Below, in pieces: positions 38,923 to 59,538 of a stretch of 64,000 nt of DNA. The notes beneath the pieces were generated by a model. That model was not told the DNA's origin. It made no database searches and saw only the letters and a program-made list of their open reading frames with translations. A program made the position numbers and the translations under genes. The stretch is from sequence record NC_047749.1, one strand, 5' to 3'. This DNA comes from Escherichia phage DT571/2. The stretch's first letter is position 1. Each line of letters begins with the position of its first letter.

Positions 38923-39438
38923 CTATTTATCTGTGTTTCTAAGTAGTGTTGGATCTTTGGTTATAGAGAGGATTAAAGAATCTCGATACTCTATCGCCTC
39001 TTCTAGAGTTGGAAGAGTTTTCACGTATTCTTTTCCGTTAATGGATTTTCTAACTTGAAATCCAGACCCTTTCTTCCGAATATTCTTAGTACCCAATATA
39101 TTGTTTTTACTGGTTTTTCTATTTTGACTATTTAACTGCCAGTCTGCTTCTCTTAGATTAGTCCACTTATAGTTTAGTGGATCTCCATCTATATGGTCAA
39201 CCATAACTTTGGGTAAGTTTCCTGTCATGTACAGAAAAGCAATATTTTGTGCAGGGTACTTCTTACCCTTGATTTGTATTACTAAGTCTTTTCGGTTAGG
39301 ATCTACTGAGTGTGGTTTTAAACAACCAGCAGGTAGTCCTCTTACTTTATTGTGTACTTCTTGGTTATTTAACCAAGTAAATGTTCCTTCATCTGGATTA
39401 TACTCCAGAATCCTTTTTAATTCATCTTGTGTTATCAA
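38923..39438 (-). CDS. HNH homing endonuclease
   Basis: 171 aa; HNH motif VDHIDGDPLNYKWTNLR followed by AP2-like region; sits between nrdB and nrdA. Confidence 0.8.
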   Translation of the reverse strand: MITQDELKRILEYNPDEGTFTWLNNQEVHNKVRGLPAGCLKPHSVDPNRKDLVIQIKGKKYPAQNIAFLYMTGNLPKVMVDHIDGDPLNYKWTNLREADWQLNSQNRKTSKNNILGTKNIRKKGSGFQVRKSINGKEYVKTLPTLEEAIEYRDSLILSITKDPTLLRNTDK

Positions 39439-43370: not shown

Positions 43371-45197
43371 ATGACAGAGAATGAATTAATTGAGAATTGC
43401 AAAGGTCTGCTCACTCTAACTGCGGATAAAGACTTACAACATAATAATGCTAATAAGCCTAGTGAGATGTTCCATACTCAAAGAGACTTATTGGCCGGAG
43501 AAATCAACAAGTATCTAGTATCGCAGGAATTACCCAAACATCTATTAGACGCCCATAATCTAGGTAAGATACACATTCATGATATGGATTACAGAGCACA
43601 GGGGTACACTAACTGTTGCTTAGTAGACCTTGGTGGCATGCTGAAGAATGGTACTAAAATTGGTAATGCAAATATTGAAACTCCTAAATCCATAACTACT
43701 GCATGTGCAATCACTGCTCAGATTATTGCACAAGTATCTGGTGCTCAGTATGGTGGCACCTCTATTGATCGTATCGACGAGGTTCTAGCCCCGTATGTCA
43801 GAAAGTCTTACAATAAACATCTGGGTCGTGGTCTACGTTGGCTCAAGGATGAAAGAAAAGCTGCCGTGTACGCTACTGAGCTTACTGAAAAAGAGTGTTA
43901 TGATGCATTCCAAGCCCTAGAGTATGAAACTAATTCATTATTTAACTCTAACGGACAGACTCCTTTTGTTACGCTTGGCTTTGGGCTAGGACAGGGGTGG
44001 GAGGAAAGGATGATTCAGAAAGCCATCCTCCAAAATCGTATTAAAGGTTTAGGTGCTGCTGAGTCAACCCCTATCTTCCCTAAACTAGTATTCTCAGTTA
44101 AAGAAGGATTAAATAAAAATCCAGGCGATCCTAACTACGATATAAAACAGCTAGCACTTGAGTGTTCTGCTACCCGTATGTACCCGGACTATTTAAGTTA
44201 CGAGAAAGTTGTAGCTGTTACTGGTGATTTTAAAGCTCCTATGGGTTGTCGTAGTTTTTTATCTGCTATCCCCTCTGGAGAAATTGCAGGGCGTAATAAT
44301 TTAGGTGTAGTGTCTATCAATCTACCTATGGTTGCTGCTGAGGCAGATGGAGTTTTTGAAGATTTCTGGGATATTCTAGACAAATATGTGGATGAGGCTT
44401 TTGAAGCACATGACTTCTTCTTAAACAGACTGAAGAAAGTTAAGGCTAAACAAGCCCCTATTCTTTATATGCACGGTGGTTTTGGTGTACGTTTAGATGG
44501 GGAAGAGTATGTATGGCCTATTTTTGAAGGTAGATCCTCTGTATCTCTTGGGTATATTGGGGTCTATGAGATGTGTCAAATAATGTTTAGTTTACCACAG
44601 ACTCATAGGGACTGTATTGAATTTACAGAGGAGGTTCTCACTCACCTAAAAAATCGTTGCGAAGTTAAAGCTAATGAGACTAATCTTGGGTTTAGCTTGT
44701 ATGCAACTCCTAGTGAGTCTCTATGTAATCGCTTTAATAAACTACTGGAACGTAGGTTCCCTGAGTATTCTTGGCTAACAGATAAAGGTTATCTCACTAA
44801 TAGTCATCATTTGGACGTAAGGGAGAAGGTAGCTCCAGATACTAAATTTGAGTATGAAGCTCATTTCACCAAAATAGCTAATGGTGGTAATATATCATTT
44901 GTGGAACTACCACAAATGAAAAAGTTCCATAAAGCTCTTGAATACGTAGTAGATAAGGGACTAGAATGTAGCCATTATATTGGTGTTAATATACCGATTG
45001 ATGAGTGCTTCAACTGTGGGTATATGGGTGAATCTGTTGCCTCTGAACGTGGGTTTGTATGTCCGAGTTGTGGATCTGAAGAAATAGAGGTTACACGTAG
45101 GGTTTGCGGGTACCTGGGGTCCCCGGGCAGTAGGCCTTTCAATTCTGGGAAACAAAAAGAAGTGCTTGGTAGAGTAAAACACTTAAATCTTAAGTAA
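43371..45197 (+). CDS. nrdD: anaerobic ribonucleoside-triphosphate reductase
   Basis: 608 aa; C-terminal glycyl-radical motif RVCGYLG and zinc ribbon CFNCGY...CPSCGS. Confidence 0.9.
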   Translation: MTENELIENCKGLLTLTADKDLQHNNANKPSEMFHTQRDLLAGEINKYLVSQELPKHLLDAHNLGKIHIHDMDYRAQGYTNCCLVDLGGMLKNGTKIGNANIETPKSITTACAITAQIIAQVSGAQYGGTSIDRIDEVLAPYVRKSYNKHLGRGLRWLKDERKAAVYATELTEKECYDAFQALEYETNSLFNSNGQTPFVTLGFGLGQGWEERMIQKAILQNRIKGLGAAESTPIFPKLVFSVKEGLNKNPGDPNYDIKQLALECSATRMYPDYLSYEKVVAVTGDFKAPMGCRSFLSAIPSGEIAGRNNLGVVSINLPMVAAEADGVFEDFWDILDKYVDEAFEAHDFFLNRLKKVKAKQAPILYMHGGFGVRLDGEEYVWPIFEGRSSVSLGYIGVYEMCQIMFSLPQTHRDCIEFTEEVLTHLKNRCEVKANETNLGFSLYATPSESLCNRFNKLLERRFPEYSWLTDKGYLTNSHHLDVREKVAPDTKFEYEAHFTKIANGGNISFVELPQMKKFHKALEYVVDKGLECSHYIGVNIPIDECFNCGYMGESVASERGFVCPSCGSEEIEVTRRVCGYLGSPGSRPFNSGKQKEVLGRVKHLNLK

Positions 45198-52867: not shown

Positions 52868-52884
52868 CTACTTAAAAATTTCAG

Positions 52885-52913
52885 TTGCTTAATCCTACAA
52901 TTCTTGATATAAT
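52885..52913 (+). promoter_or_regulatory. T5-early-type promoter
   Basis: TTGCTT-17-TATAAT. Confidence 0.6.
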
Positions 52914-52970
52914 ATTCTCATAGTTTGAAAGAACTATTCTGTTTAATTCTTAATTAAGGAAATATAAAAT

Positions 52971-53733: not shown

Positions 53734-54042
53734 ATGAGCGATCAGGTAAACCAAAACTATGAAGGACACGTTGATGATCAGTCAATCCTTCTATGGGAAA
53801 GAGAAGGGGAACAAATAAGATTGACAGTATCTGAATTTCGTGGGAATCTATACATGGGAATTAGGTATTGGCTCCAGGATATTACTGGAGAATGGTTTCC
53901 AACGAAATCCGGCTTCTCTTTTCCGTACACTCTAGAAACTACTTCACAGCTATTCTATGCTTTTACGCAAATCCTTAGTGAATCTGAGGTTTTACATGAA
54001 GTACAGAAACGAGCTGAAGAACTCAAAGCCAAGAATGCCTAG
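53734..54042 (+). CDS. hypothetical protein
   Basis: 102-aa ORF. Confidence 0.55.
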   Translation: MSDQVNQNYEGHVDDQSILLWEREGEQIRLTVSEFRGNLYMGIRYWLQDITGEWFPTKSGFSFPYTLETTSQLFYAFTQILSESEVLHEVQKRAEELKAKNA

Positions 54043-54069
54043 TTCTTGGCTTTTTCTTTATAAATGTAT

Positions 54070-54098
54070 TTGCTTTCAACTCAGTTTTGTTATATAAT
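54070..54098 (+). promoter_or_regulatory. T5-early-type promoter
   Basis: TTGCTT-17-TATAAT then leader. Confidence 0.6.
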
Positions 54099-54112: not shown

Positions 54113-54328
54113 ATGAGAGGATCAATCATGGCAATGACAATAACACTTCCCAAGATTCAAGCAAAACTTAATCTACTTTCCACAGCACGCATTAATTATC
54201 AAGATAACATAGGCACAGTAAATCAAAAGGCGTACAAAGATGCGTTTCTGAAAGAATCTGCTGATTTGATGGATATGGTTACACAATATAATAAAGAACT
54301 CAAGATGGAAATCGCCGATGATGACTAA
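54113..54328 (+). CDS. hypothetical protein (true start probably ATG at 54128)
   Basis: first ATG lies inside the RBS-like TAATGAGAGG leader. Confidence 0.5.
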   Translation: MRGSIMAMTITLPKIQAKLNLLSTARINYQDNIGTVNQKAYKDAFLKESADLMDMVTQYNKELKMEIADDD

Positions 54329-55292
54329 TGTAAAAGAATTTATTAAACGCTGTCAAGAAGCATATTATCAAGGCATGTCTTTAATCTCTGATGAAGAATA
54401 TGATCGCCTGGTAAAACGCTTCCCGTTAGAGGAAGAGATCGGGCCTAAGGGTGATATTCCACATCTATACCGTATGTATTCTTTACAGAAAGTTTATTAT
54501 AATCGTGGAGATAAACCCCCATTTAACCCGTTAGGTCAAGTAGAAACTGATAAGTTAGATGGTTGTGCAATTTCCCTGCTATATATTAATGGCGAATTTG
54601 TTCAAGCACTAACTCGTGGTAATGGTATTCTGGGAAATGATGTCACAAGCAACGTAAGATTGCTGAACATCCCTAAAAAGATTTCTCAAAAAGTACCTAC
54701 TCAAATCACTGGTGAAGTTCTAATTACAAAAGAAGTAGAAAATAAACGTAACTTTGCCTCTGGTGCTATTAACCTCAAAGATAGTGATGATTTCGTACAG
54801 CGTATCGGGGAAGGTGGTTTAATCTTCGTTGCATACGGTATCCAGTGTTCTGCTGAATCTGTAGGTATTACAGAAGCGTATTTAAAAGATATGCTTTGGC
54901 TAGAGAATGAGAACTTCTTAACAGTTGTTAATGTACGTTCCTTCTTTAAATGGATTCCAACGGACGGTAAAGTTGTTCGTATTAATGATAACAACAAATT
55001 CTTCCGTGAAGGCTGGACTAATAAATTTCCTCGCGGTGCATTTGCTATTAAAGAGGATGAAGAAGGTGAGACTACAACTCTTACTAAAGTTGAATGGAAT
55101 GTAGGGGCTTCTGGTAAAGTAACTCCAGTCGGTTATTTTGAACCAGTAATTATTGATGATGCTACAATTGTTAAAGCGACTCTTAATAACGTTGATTATA
55201 TTAACTCTCTCGATCTAGAGATCGGTTGCCAGATTCGAGTGATTCGTGCTGGTGGTGTAATCCCGTGCATAGTAGAACGAGTATACGATTAA
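54318..55292 (+). CDS. NAD-dependent DNA ligase, N-terminal adenylation part
   Basis: 324 aa; adenylation motif KxDG (ETDKLDGCAIS). Confidence 0.8.
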   Translation: MMTNVKEFIKRCQEAYYQGMSLISDEEYDRLVKRFPLEEEIGPKGDIPHLYRMYSLQKVYYNRGDKPPFNPLGQVETDKLDGCAISLLYINGEFVQALTRGNGILGNDVTSNVRLLNIPKKISQKVPTQITGEVLITKEVENKRNFASGAINLKDSDDFVQRIGEGGLIFVAYGIQCSAESVGITEAYLKDMLWLENENFLTVVNVRSFFKWIPTDGKVVRINDNNKFFREGWTNKFPRGAFAIKEDEEGETTTLTKVEWNVGASGKVTPVGYFEPVIIDDATIVKATLNNVDYINSLDLEIGCQIRVIRAGGVIPCIVERVYD

Positions 55293-55435
55293 TACATAAC
55301 CCTTTGCTACCCATTTACCATATCGGAATTATAAAGTGGTTATTGACATTTTCGCCGCTTAGGTATATACTATTATCATTCAGTTGAGGGATAGAAAGTT
55401 ATGGCGAGGGTAAGCAAAGTTAGTTAAAATTGTAG

Positions 55436-55474
55436 TTGCTAAATGCTTAAATACTTGCTATAATATTTATATAA
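55436..55474 (+). promoter_or_regulatory. promoter with extended -10 (TGCTATAAT) inside the ligase split
   Basis: read directly, followed by consensus leader and ATG at 55492. Confidence 0.5.
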
Positions 55475-55491
55475 ATTGATAAGGAAGAAAT

Positions 55492-56274
55492 TTGATGAAA
55501 ATCGAAATTCCAACACAATGTCCCTCTTGTGGTTCTAAGCTAGATCTTGTCAACGGACAATTATTCTGTCGTAATAAGTCCAACTGTCCAGCGCAATCAA
55601 GTAAGTTAATTGAGAACTTCTGTACAAAAATGAAGTTAAAGGGCTTTGGCCCGAAAACTATTGAGAAGCTGGAGCTGACGAAGATTTCAGAACTATTTTA
55701 CCTAACCGAAGAAGATTTGGTTAGAGCCGTGGGTAGCAAGGTTGCCGCTAAGTTAATTAGCGAATTAAATACTAAAGTTCGCGGAGACATTGACTTTGGT
55801 TCAGTTCTCGGTTCTTTAGGAATCCCTCTAATTGGAGAGGTTGCAGCAAAGAAATTATCCCAAAATTGCACTAGCTTCCACGATGTGAAGGCTGACGGCA
55901 AGGCTGGAGAAAACTATAAAGCCTGGCTAAATTCCCCACAAGGCAAGGATGTTATCGAATTACCGTGGAAATTCTCAAATGGTATTAAAGGTGCTAAAGC
56001 TGACATCATCATTACAGATGAATTAGTTGCCCCGCCAAATGGAATCACGGTGTGTATTACCGGATCTTTGCAAGATTTTGCAAATCGAACGGATGCAACA
56101 AACTATCTAGAAGGTCTAGGGTATACTGTTAAAAAATCAGTTACCAAAGACGTTAAATACCTCATCTGTGAGGATGAATCTAAGCGTTCTTCCTCATCTT
56201 ATAAGAAAGCCGAAACGAATGGGATAGAAATCCTGTCGATTAAAGAACTATTGGAGAAAAATAATAATGTCTAA
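55492..56274 (+). CDS. NAD-dependent DNA ligase, C-terminal part (Zn finger, HhH, BRCT-like)
   Basis: 260 aa; four-Cys zinc finger CPSCGS...CRNKSNC. Confidence 0.8.
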   Translation: MMKIEIPTQCPSCGSKLDLVNGQLFCRNKSNCPAQSSKLIENFCTKMKLKGFGPKTIEKLELTKISELFYLTEEDLVRAVGSKVAAKLISELNTKVRGDIDFGSVLGSLGIPLIGEVAAKKLSQNCTSFHDVKADGKAGENYKAWLNSPQGKDVIELPWKFSNGIKGAKADIIITDELVAPPNGITVCITGSLQDFANRTDATNYLEGLGYTVKKSVTKDVKYLICEDESKRSSSSYKKAETNGIEILSIKELLEKNNNV

Positions 56275-57034
56275 ACTGAACTGGAACGTAGAAGGTGTAA
56301 CCGAGTCTCTGAAAGCAAAAGCCACTGCTCTGGGTGTTGCTGTAATCTCTCAAGAACAAGTAGCTGCTATCGCTGCTGAACTGGCTGCTGAAACTGGCAA
56401 AGACGTTACCGCTCGCTCTGTTGGCTCTAAGCTGCGTAAAGAAGGTTTCGAAGTACAGAAAGCTAACGAAGTACAGAAATCCCCGTGGACTCCTGAGCAG
56501 GAAGCTGAACTGGTTGATTTCCTGAACTCTCATGCTGGTCAGTATACTTATGCTGAAATCGCTGCTGCTGTAGCTGGTGGTCAGTTCGGTGCTAAACAGG
56601 TACAGGGTAAGATCCTGAGTCTGGAAATGACCGCTTCTGTTAAACCAACTGAAAAAGCTGCTGCTGTTCGTTCCTTCACTCCGGATGAAGAAACTGATTT
56701 TGTTAATCAGGTTGTTGCTGGTGCTACTATTGAAGCTATCGCTGCCCACTTCGGTCGCAATATTAAGCAGATCCGTGGTAAAGCTCTGAGTCTGCTTCGT
56801 GAAGGTCGTATCGCTGCTATGCCGGTACAGGAAACTTCAAGTGCTAAAACTCGTGAAGATCTGCTAGAAGGTCTGGATCTGGCTAACATGACTGTTGCTG
56901 AGATCGCTGAGAAAACTGGTAAGTCTGAGCGCGGTGTTAAATCTATGCTGTCTCGTCGTGGTCTGGTTGCTAAGGACTATGATGGTGCCGCTAAGCGTGC
57001 TAAACTGGATGCAAAAGCTGCGGCTGCTGAATAA
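56267..57034 (+). CDS. Ala-rich abundant protein, possibly T5 D5-like DNA-binding protein
   Basis: 255 aa; strongly biased codon usage; followed by terminator. Confidence 0.55.
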   Translation: MSKLNWNVEGVTESLKAKATALGVAVISQEQVAAIAAELAAETGKDVTARSVGSKLRKEGFEVQKANEVQKSPWTPEQEAELVDFLNSHAGQYTYAEIAAAVAGGQFGAKQVQGKILSLEMTASVKPTEKAAAVRSFTPDEETDFVNQVVAGATIEAIAAHFGRNIKQIRGKALSLLREGRIAAMPVQETSSAKTREDLLEGLDLANMTVAEIAEKTGKSERGVKSMLSRRGLVAKDYDGAAKRAKLDAKAAAAE

Positions 57035-57051
57035 TCTGGTAAATTAAACCT

Positions 57052-57084
57052 AAGGGGAGGGGGCTATGCTCCTTCCCCTTTTTG
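57052..57084 (+). terminator. rho-independent terminator
   Basis: stem AAGGGGA/TCCCCTT then TTTTT. Confidence 0.6.
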
Positions 57085-58589
57085 CATTTAGAAGGCACGA
57101 AAGCGTGCAAAGGAGAATGACCTTGTTTAACGTGCAAGCTGTAGTGTTGAAGATGCTTCTAGCTTCAGAACAGAAGCAAATAGCATTGGAAACATTCTCA
57201 AAACTGCATAAAGATCATTTTAATGACGCTTTCTCCTCAATTTACCAAGCCGTCCAGAATTATTATAAAAAGTATAACACAATGCCGTCCATTGACGCAC
57301 TGATGCTTGAGGCTAATAGGAACGCCCGCCTTTCTCAAGCTCTAGTCGTTTTAGCTAACACTCAAATTCCAGAAGTTAGCATGGAACAGGCACTTGAAGT
57401 CCTAGAGGCCGAGTATACACAGGATTTATTCCTGAAGCTTCTAGAAACAGACGTGCTTCAAGATTTAACAATGCTGGATCAGGGAGAAATTCTTAACCGA
57501 GTTGCCTCCCTTCACTTAAAATTAGAAGAGAAAGTAACGAATACTGGAAAAGTATTCAACGCAGATAACATGCGTATTTTCCAGAGAGAAGAAGATACCA
57601 AACTGAACTTAATCGCTCTTGGTATTTGTAATGAGTTCGACGCTCAAATTGGTTTAGCTCGCACAGAAACGTTACTGCTTGGTGGTTGGCGTGGTACTGG
57701 TAAATCCATTATCTGTTCAAACATACAGGTTCAGCAATATTTGAATGGAGATATTGCTCCATACTTCTCAATTGAGATGAAAGAACATGAAGTATTTAGA
57801 CGTAATCTAGCTATGTTAGCTGGTGTATCAGCACTAGCAATGCGTAATAATACTCTAGAAGGTGCAGCTCTGTTGAGATTAGCCAGAACTAGAGCTAGGA
57901 TGTTTAACGGTGGTGAAGAGCTTTTCGATAACTTCGTTAAACAGTATACAATGGCTAAGATGTGTGATTTCTACGATATGGAAAGTAAGCTAATAGAAGG
58001 GTATGAGCTACATACTCCTATGATTATTGTTTATGATCCTGAGCTGTCTATTACAACAGTTGACGTAGAATTAAATAAATTAGTTGCTAGATACGGGGAT
58101 AAAGTTACAGTAGCTTTACTAGACTATATTAACCAAACCCGACTTCCAGACTCTAAAACCATTGATATGTATGACTGGAAAGAACAGATGGTTGTTAGCT
58201 CGTCTTTCAAATCTATCTGCCAGAAACATAACGTGGCTGGTGTAGCTCCTTACCAGATCGATCAAGATGGTAGAACACGTATGTCGAAGGGGATTCTTGA
58301 TTCCGCAGACATGGCTGCTAATCTTAATGCTGCAAAAGCTGATAATGGTCAAGGTGCTATTATGTTTGACTTCGTTAAGACTCGGTCTTCTGATAGCGTG
58401 AAGTTTATGCCTAAAATGAACTGGGAAACCCTGCGGATGGATAACACTACCAACCTAGCAATGGAAGATATATCTCAAATGGAAGCTGAGTTCGTTATCC
58501 CTATTGAGAAGGATAAGCCGGCTCAATCCAAACGTGCTAAGAAAGACAAAGCTGAAAATTCAACAGGTGAACAGGCCAGCGATATATGA
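57066..58589 (+). CDS. DnaB-like replicative helicase (true start probably ATG at 57117)
   Basis: Walker A GGWRGTGKS; track start lies inside terminator hairpin; AGGAGA SD precedes 57117. Confidence 0.8.
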   Translation: MLLPLFAFRRHESVQRRMTLFNVQAVVLKMLLASEQKQIALETFSKLHKDHFNDAFSSIYQAVQNYYKKYNTMPSIDALMLEANRNARLSQALVVLANTQIPEVSMEQALEVLEAEYTQDLFLKLLETDVLQDLTMLDQGEILNRVASLHLKLEEKVTNTGKVFNADNMRIFQREEDTKLNLIALGICNEFDAQIGLARTETLLLGGWRGTGKSIICSNIQVQQYLNGDIAPYFSIEMKEHEVFRRNLAMLAGVSALAMRNNTLEGAALLRLARTRARMFNGGEELFDNFVKQYTMAKMCDFYDMESKLIEGYELHTPMIIVYDPELSITTVDVELNKLVARYGDKVTVALLDYINQTRLPDSKTIDMYDWKEQMVVSSSFKSICQKHNVAGVAPYQIDQDGRTRMSKGILDSADMAANLNAAKADNGQGAIMFDFVKTRSSDSVKFMPKMNWETLRMDNTTNLAMEDISQMEAEFVIPIEKDKPAQSKRAKKDKAENSTGEQASDI

Positions 58590-59476: not shown

Positions 59477-59477
59477 T
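59448..59477 (+). promoter_or_regulatory. promoter with extended -10 (TGGTATAAT) for the polymerase gene
   Basis: TTGCTG-18-TATAAT overlapping end of primase gene. Confidence 0.5.
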
Positions 59478-59538
59478 ATATTGGTAAGTTAGAGAAGAAA
59501 CACTGAAGTTATACTTACTTACCAAGAGGAGATTAAAT

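Follow-up and report, generated by a model that had tools for sequence, protein, structure and literature searches.

The window analysed here is a stretch of 64,000 nucleotides (nt) from Escherichia phage DT571/2 (sequence record NC_047749.1; one strand, 5' to 3'), and our subject is a pair of adjacent genes in it, ligA and ligB, that resemble the two parts of a DNA ligase dependent on nicotinamide adenine dinucleotide (NAD+). The two open reading frames (ORFs) were found at 54318-55292 (324 amino acids) and 55492-56274, and downstream of them lie, in this order, the genes for D5, a DnaB-like helicase, a primase, and a DNA polymerase. With Escherichia phage DT57C (Tequintavirus, T5-like, Demerecviridae), the region shared 99.1% identity over 2.4 kb. 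In the phage record search, 514 records matched the 2.4-kb region, and 428 of these covered at least 80% of the query. The pair is annotated as ligA and ligB in DT57C, as dnlj1 and dnlj2 in T5, and likewise in hundreds of relatives. Each half belongs to a separate PHROG family, LigA to PHROG 3359 (expect value (E) 2e-175; positions 1-325 of 325) and LigB to PHROG 3498 (E 2e-136; positions 1-255 of 256). The arrangement is that of the T5-type split ligase, in which a protein of ~320 amino acids (domain Ia, nucleotidyltransferase, and OB fold) and one of ~250-260 amino acids (zinc finger, helix-hairpin-helix (HhH), and BRCT) are encoded by adjacent genes on the same strand, with D5 following ligB.

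The two proteins were complementary when placed on profiles of complete ligases. LigA matched TIGR00575 (652 positions) up to position 378 and LigB matched positions 388-651, and on phrog_3869 (656 positions) the corresponding spans were 9-381 and 388-654. The loss between the halves on these profiles is thus only a linker of 6 to 9 positions. Against the Escherichia coli enzyme (PDB 2OWO), LigA ended at about residue 393 and LigB started at about residue 400. Because the halves complement each other on the profiles and in the alignment to E. coli LigA, the ligase chain is, on this evidence, cut cleanly in the linker between OB fold and zinc finger, with no part missing. By homology, the pair is a member of the LigA superfamily (EC 6.5.1.2) in a two-chain form.

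The LigA half carries the catalytic core. Pfam assigned it a DNA_ligase_aden domain (E 2e-23; 83.5 bits against a cut-off of 27) and a DNA_ligase_OB domain at residues 252-322 (E 6e-22; 77.7 bits against a cut-off of 32.9). Motif I, KLDG, occupies residues 79-82 and aligns to K115-L-D-G of E. coli LigA. In the alignment to 2OWO, K79 and D81 of this motif correspond to K115 and D117, R100 to R136, E133 to E173, the motif IV aspartate D216 to D285, and K245 to K314, so that the residues of motifs I, III, and V are present as K79, D81, E133, and K245. In domain Ia, D25, Y28, and D29 correspond to D32, Y35, and D36 of the E. coli enzyme. The segment AYYQGMSLISDEEYDRL (residues 15-31) was aligned there to E. 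coli PEIPDAEYDRL, with a weak segment score, and the YY pair of LigA domain Ia was placed by inspection over this weak alignment segment. Read in this way, LigA has the residues that bind nicotinamide mononucleotide (E. coli Y22, D32, Y35, and D36), which confer NAD+ specificity, and Y16, S24, Y28, and D29 of LigA were invariant in the clade alignment. The aligned catalytic and domain Ia residues were likewise invariant across Tequintavirus, Sugarlandvirus, Novosibvirus, Shenzhenvirus, and two Vibrio phage groups. Codon 221 of ligA (window 54978-54980) encodes arginine in all seven aligned Demerecviridae genera.

The zinc finger, HhH, and BRCT modules of the ligase are also present, but on the LigB instead of the LigA chain. 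Cysteines C9, C12, C25, and C31 of LigB form a Cys4 zinc site that aligns to C408, C411, C426, and C432 of E. coli LigA in 2OWO, and the four were invariant across the same phage groups. The BRCT domain was detected by Pfam (E 1e-8; 35.4 bits against a cut-off of 21.3). Pfam matches to HhH fell below their cut-off (24.4 against 27), although the region still aligns to E. coli residues 433-529. With regard to the start of ligB, translation most likely begins at the ATG at 55495 and not at the TTG at 55492, because a Shine-Dalgarno sequence, AAGGAAG, precedes it at 55481-55487 and the gene is annotated in T5 in its 780-nt form; the spacer between ligA and ligB therefore measures 202 bp (55293-55494). 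The start of ligA may be the second ATG, at 54321, as in T5.

These results can be set against an earlier note made from the letters of the window. It had described a NAD-dependent DNA ligase encoded as two ORFs, which the ORF positions and the Pfam domains bear out, and it had placed an adenylation domain with a KxDG motif in the ORF ending at 55292, where KLDG was indeed found. The same note let the zinc-finger, HhH, and BRCT part begin at 55492 after a spacer of about 200 bp with one promoter and a consensus leader; the domains and a promoter with a 'repeat b' leader are there, but the start has to be moved to the probable ATG at 55495, and the 202-bp spacer holds two promoter sites, not one. 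Coordinates of the features are given in Table 1.

Table 1. Genes and predicted signals around the ligA-ligB pair (positions in the window).
Feature	Position	Strand	Evidence or remark
Terminator-like hairpin closing the upstream transcription unit	54025..54053	+	12-pair stem, then a T run; T5 has a rho-independent terminator at the equivalent place
Likely early promoter 5' of the small ORF and ligA (T5P35 equivalent), TTGCTT-17-TATAAT, then ATTTATATAAATT leader	54070..54098	+	Predicted, read from sequence
Small ORF, phrog_8267	54128..54328	+	Stop codon overlaps the ligA start; absent from T5
ligA	54318..55292	+	Pfam, PHROG 3359, TIGR00575, 9hu3_A, E. coli LigA alignment
ligA-ligB spacer, non-coding, 202 bp	55293..55494	+	Stops in all three frames; no terminator or Rfam match
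Upstream spacer promoter (T5P36 equivalent), TTGACA-17-TATACT	55343..55371	+	Consensus scan, 11/12; annotated in T5
Downstream spacer promoter (T5P37 equivalent), TTGCTA-17-TG-TATAAT	55436..55464	+	10/12; ATATT discriminator and 'repeat b' leader
Shine-Dalgarno AAGGAAG, 7 nt 5' of the ligB ATG	55481..55487	+	Sequence; GAGGAA kept in Klebsiella and Aeromonas phages
ligB, NAD+-dependent DNA ligase subunit B (Cys4 zinc finger, HhH, BRCT)	55495..56274	+	Pfam, PHROG 3498, TIGR00575, 9hu3_B
D5 DNA-binding protein gene	56267..57034	+	ATG overlaps the ligB end by 8 nt (ATGTCTAA, 56267-56274)
Terminator-like hairpin closing the ligB-D5 unit, 13 pairs, 8 G-C, then a T run	57052..57080	+	Terminator annotated at the equivalent place in HdH2

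Structural entries for a homologue also point to a two-chain enzyme. PDB entries 9HU3 and 9I5I each hold a chain of 339 amino acids named 'DNA ligase (NAD(+))' and a chain of 248 amino acids named 'DNA ligase subunit B'. Chain A of 9HU3 matched LigA with an E of 6e-103 and chain B matched LigB with an E of 2e-79, and the PDB chain B is 100% identical to a protein of Providencia phage PR1/PSTCR5. The two chains of this Providencia homologue appear to associate, their co-presence in the entries being taken as evidence of a complex. Assembly of the ligase from two polypeptides, which the earlier note had proposed, is supported by the presence of both chains in 9HU3 and 9I5I, though the idea is not new.

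Taken with the domain and residue assignments, we consider it very probable that the pair is the two-subunit NAD+-dependent DNA ligase of T5-like phages (Demerecviridae). Nick-joining activity is predicted for the pair of this phage. The zinc finger, HhH, and BRCT module has an established role in nick binding and clamp closure. When a one-chain NAD+ ligase is cut back to the end of its OB fold, it keeps self-adenylation and loses ligation (PMC1684257); LigA by itself should thus be able to load adenosine monophosphate (AMP) from NAD+, and the DNA steps would depend on LigB. In such an enzyme, LigA (domain Ia, nucleotidyltransferase, and OB fold) would bind NAD+ and self-adenylate on Lys79, and LigB would provide the DNA-clamping and nick-binding module that is C-terminal in one-chain LigA. 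The two would associate non-covalently on nicked DNA for AMP transfer and phosphodiester formation, and their task would be the sealing of Okazaki fragments and nicks in phage replication.

Several observations weigh against this reading and need to be kept in view. Both halves scored under the LigA equivalog cut-off of TIGR00575 (172.7 and 107.9 bits against 444.45), and where the equivalog models TIGR00575 and NF005932 call for a single polypeptide, the window has two cistrons. Furthermore, LigA has R221 in place of the motif IV lysine (E. coli K290), a substitution that is invariant in the clade and may affect catalysis. Our literature search yielded no paper describing 9HU3 or 9I5I, and for neither this phage nor T5 did the searchable literature yield data on biochemistry or expression.

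The division of the ligase into two genes is shared well beyond this phage. The spacer holds 6, 5, and 6 stop codons in its three frames and ligB lies in a different frame from ligA, so that no single frameshift could join the ORFs. The same split layout was seen in T5 and in Klebsiella, Proteus, Vibrio, and Aeromonas phages. A scan of IMG/VR by LigB alignment found separate ligA and ligB genes in 80/80 loci, down to 36% identity, and 0 fused ones; the two genes co-occurred in constant order and on the same strand in every locus, with gaps of 65-1359 nt between them. Both halves are under strong purifying selection, with ratios of nonsynonymous to synonymous substitution rates (dN/dS) of 0.03-0.13 in comparisons with T5, HdH2, and HMD-P3, and in more distant comparisons the dN values of LigA and LigB ran in parallel (0.22/0.23, 0.38/0.41, and 0.47/0.47). 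Outside the clade, the nearest phage relatives have one-chain ligases, of 680 amino acids in phiHQ (phiKZ-like) and 637 amino acids in YerA41. From these comparisons, the split is an old and fixed trait of the whole clade, not damage; it is universal and apparently ancestral in the Demerecviridae-like clade.

A split ligase in these phages is already known: annotation of the two genes goes back to the T5 genome paper of 2005, and the PDB contains a two-chain structure of a homologue. PMC1684257, with reference to Wang et al. 2005, describes it as a split NAD+-dependent ligase first found in T5. Subunits A and B are the names used in T5 papers and genome notes of later date. As a discovery, the present result therefore carries little weight, and its comparative additions are modest: the universal split, a promoter that always lies directly 5' of ligB, itself the head of a ligB-D5 unit, and occasional colonisation by a GIY-YIG gene. 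They could be of use in studying why the ligase stays split and in engineering T5-like phages.

Among known systems, LigA and LigB of T5 (dnlj1 and dnlj2) are the same gene pair, with protein identities of 98.8% for LigA and 97% for LigB, the same 202-bp spacer, the same annotated promoters T5P36 and T5P37, and the same D5 neighbour. The differences from T5 are at strain level only, and the window, which is DT57C-like, has an extra ORF of 71 amino acids just 5' of ligA that T5 lacks. Subunits A and B of Providencia phage PR1/PSTCR5 (9HU3 and 9I5I) form an orthologous two-chain enzyme with the same chain boundaries but from a different genus, their LigB being ~54% identical (tblastn). One-chain bacterial LigA (E. 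coli 2OWO; Thermus filiformis 1DGS and 1V9P) consists of the same six modules, arranged alike, and shares with the window pair the residues of motifs I, III, and V, the motif IV aspartate, and the Cys4 zinc site; it differs in that the window pair is cut in the OB-to-zinc-finger linker, has arginine for K290, and is divergent in sequence. The one-chain ligases of phiHQ and YerA41, the nearest phage relatives of LigA outside Demerecviridae (29-31% identity), are not split. Further replication enzymes of phages that are one chain elsewhere are likewise made from separate cistrons and reassembled non-covalently, for example the T4 topoisomerase (gp39/gp60/gp52) and, in some T4-like phages, the DNA polymerase, whose gene 43 is split. 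Those are unrelated proteins, and several of their splits are tied to mobile elements, a tie that is not evident in the window ligase.

In the T5 GenBank record, both sigma-70-type sites of the spacer already carry labels as putative early promoters, T5P36 for the first and T5P37 for the second, which has the conserved 'repeat b' leader. The second site also bears the ATATT discriminator, which is a hallmark of T5 early promoters (PMC7472727). Two separate sites of at least 10/12 arose in only 0.2% of 5000 shuffles of the spacer, and sites of at least 11/12 numbered only four on the + strand of the whole 64-kb window; because of these two results, a chance origin of the two spacer promoters is unlikely. 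The scan of the 3.3-kb region as a whole speaks the other way, since it was not enriched (6 sites found against 7.0 expected from shuffles), and the promoter case rests on score, position, and conservation. The hexamers and the 17-nt spacing of both promoters are kept in Klebsiella and Aeromonas phages, whose LigA is only 72% and 49% identical, and a sigma-70-like promoter with a 17-nt spacer lies directly 5' of ligB in 18/18 diverse relatives. The gap between ligA and ligB has two promoters in enterobacterial lineages and one in environmental relatives. Use of the spacer promoters in vivo is predicted.

In 204 phage records the spacer as a whole keeps an identity of at least 99%, compared with ~94-96% for the flanking genes. 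In a per-feature comparison with HdH2, other promoter-bearing intergenic gaps had identities of 96-100%, and regulatory DNA is more conserved than coding DNA in this phage group. No Rfam match was found in 55200-55600 at E up to 1. High conservation of the spacer is thus explained as ordinary promoter constraint, because other promoter gaps are equally conserved and Rfam is empty; an extra non-coding element in the spacer was considered and rejected, as the other promoter-bearing gaps are equally or more conserved and the Rfam search was empty. The gaps at 52868-52970, 57035-57065, and 59477-59538, which also bear promoters, are 100% identical to HdH2, with 94-98% identity in the adjacent genes. 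Between the two spacer promoters lies a mini-ORF of 8 codons (MARVSKVS; 55402-55428), 9 nt after GAGGGA (whole span 55387-55428), which is probably not coding, because a Klebsiella phage has TTG for its ATG and a different frame.

D5, an abundant early DNA-binding protein, matched PHROG 323 ('transcriptional regulator, D5-like'; E 2e-71). Since D5 begins with an ATG that lies within ligB, in an 8-nt overlap of the two genes, both are probably transcribed together, and translation of D5 is probably coupled to that of ligB. A gene also follows ligB directly in six other genera, and in several of them it is D5 or is named a D5 or DNA-binding protein. The scan of the region found no terminator-like site after ligA. 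In the transcription scheme that we propose, ligA would be read from the upstream early promoter; without a terminator after ligA, read-through would run on into ligB; the two strong tandem early promoters of the spacer would add transcripts of ligB and the overlapping D5; and the terminator at 57052-57080 would end the ligB-D5 unit. By this layout, ligB is the first gene of the ligB-D5 unit, which would also receive read-through from ligA. We infer that a conserved transcription start, not a property of the enzyme, keeps the halves as separate cistrons, and the promoter position would mainly boost expression of ligB and D5.

The same promoters allow a further proposal, which we regard as unlikely. 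Their place within the ligase could be a regulatory device by which LigB is made together with D5, in excess of LigA or on another schedule, so that ligase activity would be titrated by the supply of LigB, or LigB would serve in addition as a BRCT scaffold that binds nicks. If true, such regulation by LigB supply or such a scaffold role could help explain the unsealed site-specific nicks in packaged T5 DNA.

Somewhat less probable still, and in our view unlikely, is that the halves work separately, LigA as a minimal NAD+ ligase (like the entomopoxvirus enzymes without zinc finger and BRCT) and LigB on its own as a DNA-binding protein or scaffold that is expressed along with D5. Such independence would fit the strong promoters that ligB has of its own and its coupling to D5 rather than to ligA, and it would also fit the situation in relatives, where the gap varies from 65 to 1359 nt and some Vibrio phages have up to three unrelated genes between ligA and ligB. 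Nonetheless, 9HU3 and 9I5I each deposit both chains, one-chain enzymes cut short of the zinc finger, HhH, and BRCT self-adenylate without ligation, ligA and ligB always occur together, on one strand and in unchanging order (80/80 loci), and the halves evolve at matching rates. Separate action, which the earlier note had offered as the alternative to assembly, is thus not favoured by the two-chain entries, the co-occurrence, or the matching rates, and we retain the two-subunit ligase.

Very improbable is a split created by, or maintained for, a mobile element, be it a homing-endonuclease gene, a degenerate intron, or a split intein (an intron or intein would yield a single chain by splicing). 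The gap is evidently a site used by homing endonucleases, since an ORF of 218 amino acids with a GIY-YIG match directly follows ligA in Salmonella phages SP3 and vB_Sen_SG_WM_RUS_R2. In SP3 this ORF lies at 64007-64660 of MG387042 (Pfam E 1e-5), and its insertion point corresponds to about 55265-55317 of the window. Toward the GIY-YIG ORF, ligA loses identity to the window, from ~96% down to 68-72% over its last ~150 nt, a pattern suggestive of co-conversion or recoding in these alignments. The gene was, however, present in only 2 distinct phages and lies 5' of both intact promoters, and we read it as a recent invasion of a pre-existing gap, not the cause of the split. No remnant of a homing endonuclease was found in the spacer of the window; a footprint of the kind raised in the earlier note is therefore missing here, though the GIY-YIG gene occupies the spacer of SP3 and one other Salmonella phage. 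The intervening ORFs of other genera argue the same way: none of those that Proteus and Vibrio phages have between the two ligase genes gave an endonuclease match (one of them is DprA-like). An intron or intein is further opposed by the lack of an Rfam intron match in the spacer, by the ends of LigA and LigB, which abut on the profile with no surplus residues for intein halves, and by the solved homologue, which consists of two separate chains. As an observation on gene content, the DprA-like gene stands between ligA and ligB in Vibrio phage Direpillow8 and directly 5' of ligA in Proteus phage M4H10_20.

Nothing but the appearance of a normally single gene as two ORFs speaks for the idea that a one-chain ligase has been broken by a frameshift in sequencing or assembly, or is decaying into a pseudogene; this explanation, whose sequencing-frameshift form the earlier note had raised, is excluded by the comparative data, namely a 202-bp non-homologous spacer with stops in all three frames, an identical layout in hundreds of independently sequenced phages and in 80/80 loci, the dN/dS of 0.03-0.13 in both halves, and a loss on the ligase profiles that is limited to the linker of 6 to 9 positions.

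Some neighbouring features deserve mention. At the position equivalent to 54070-54098, T5 annotates T5P35 and 'repeat b copy 4'; the window site was below the threshold of the consensus scan, with 3/6 in the -35 hexamer. The small ORF at 54128-54328 (phrog_8267) is 72.5% identical to its copy in HdH2 and is far more divergent than its neighbours (ligA, 96%). At the other end of the locus, the DnaB-like helicase ORF starts inside the loop of the hairpin at 57052-57080 (ATG at 57066), which makes the terminator overlap the start of the next gene.

Differences from HdH2 were also seen farther away in the window. An HNH endonuclease ORF of 171 amino acids (phrog_99; E 3e-46) lies at 38923-39438 on the - strand between nrdB and nrdA, where HdH2 has a 107-bp gap. 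In HdH2, in turn, the genes for the DnaB-like helicase and the primase are separated by an HNH endonuclease gene, whereas they abut in the window (58586-58589). The region of nrdD, the anaerobic ribonucleotide reductase gene, at 43608-45197 aligned to HdH2 with 55-57% coverage and 63-69% identity, and nrdD of HdH2 is annotated as two ORFs; the comparison suggests a mosaic replacement of this region.

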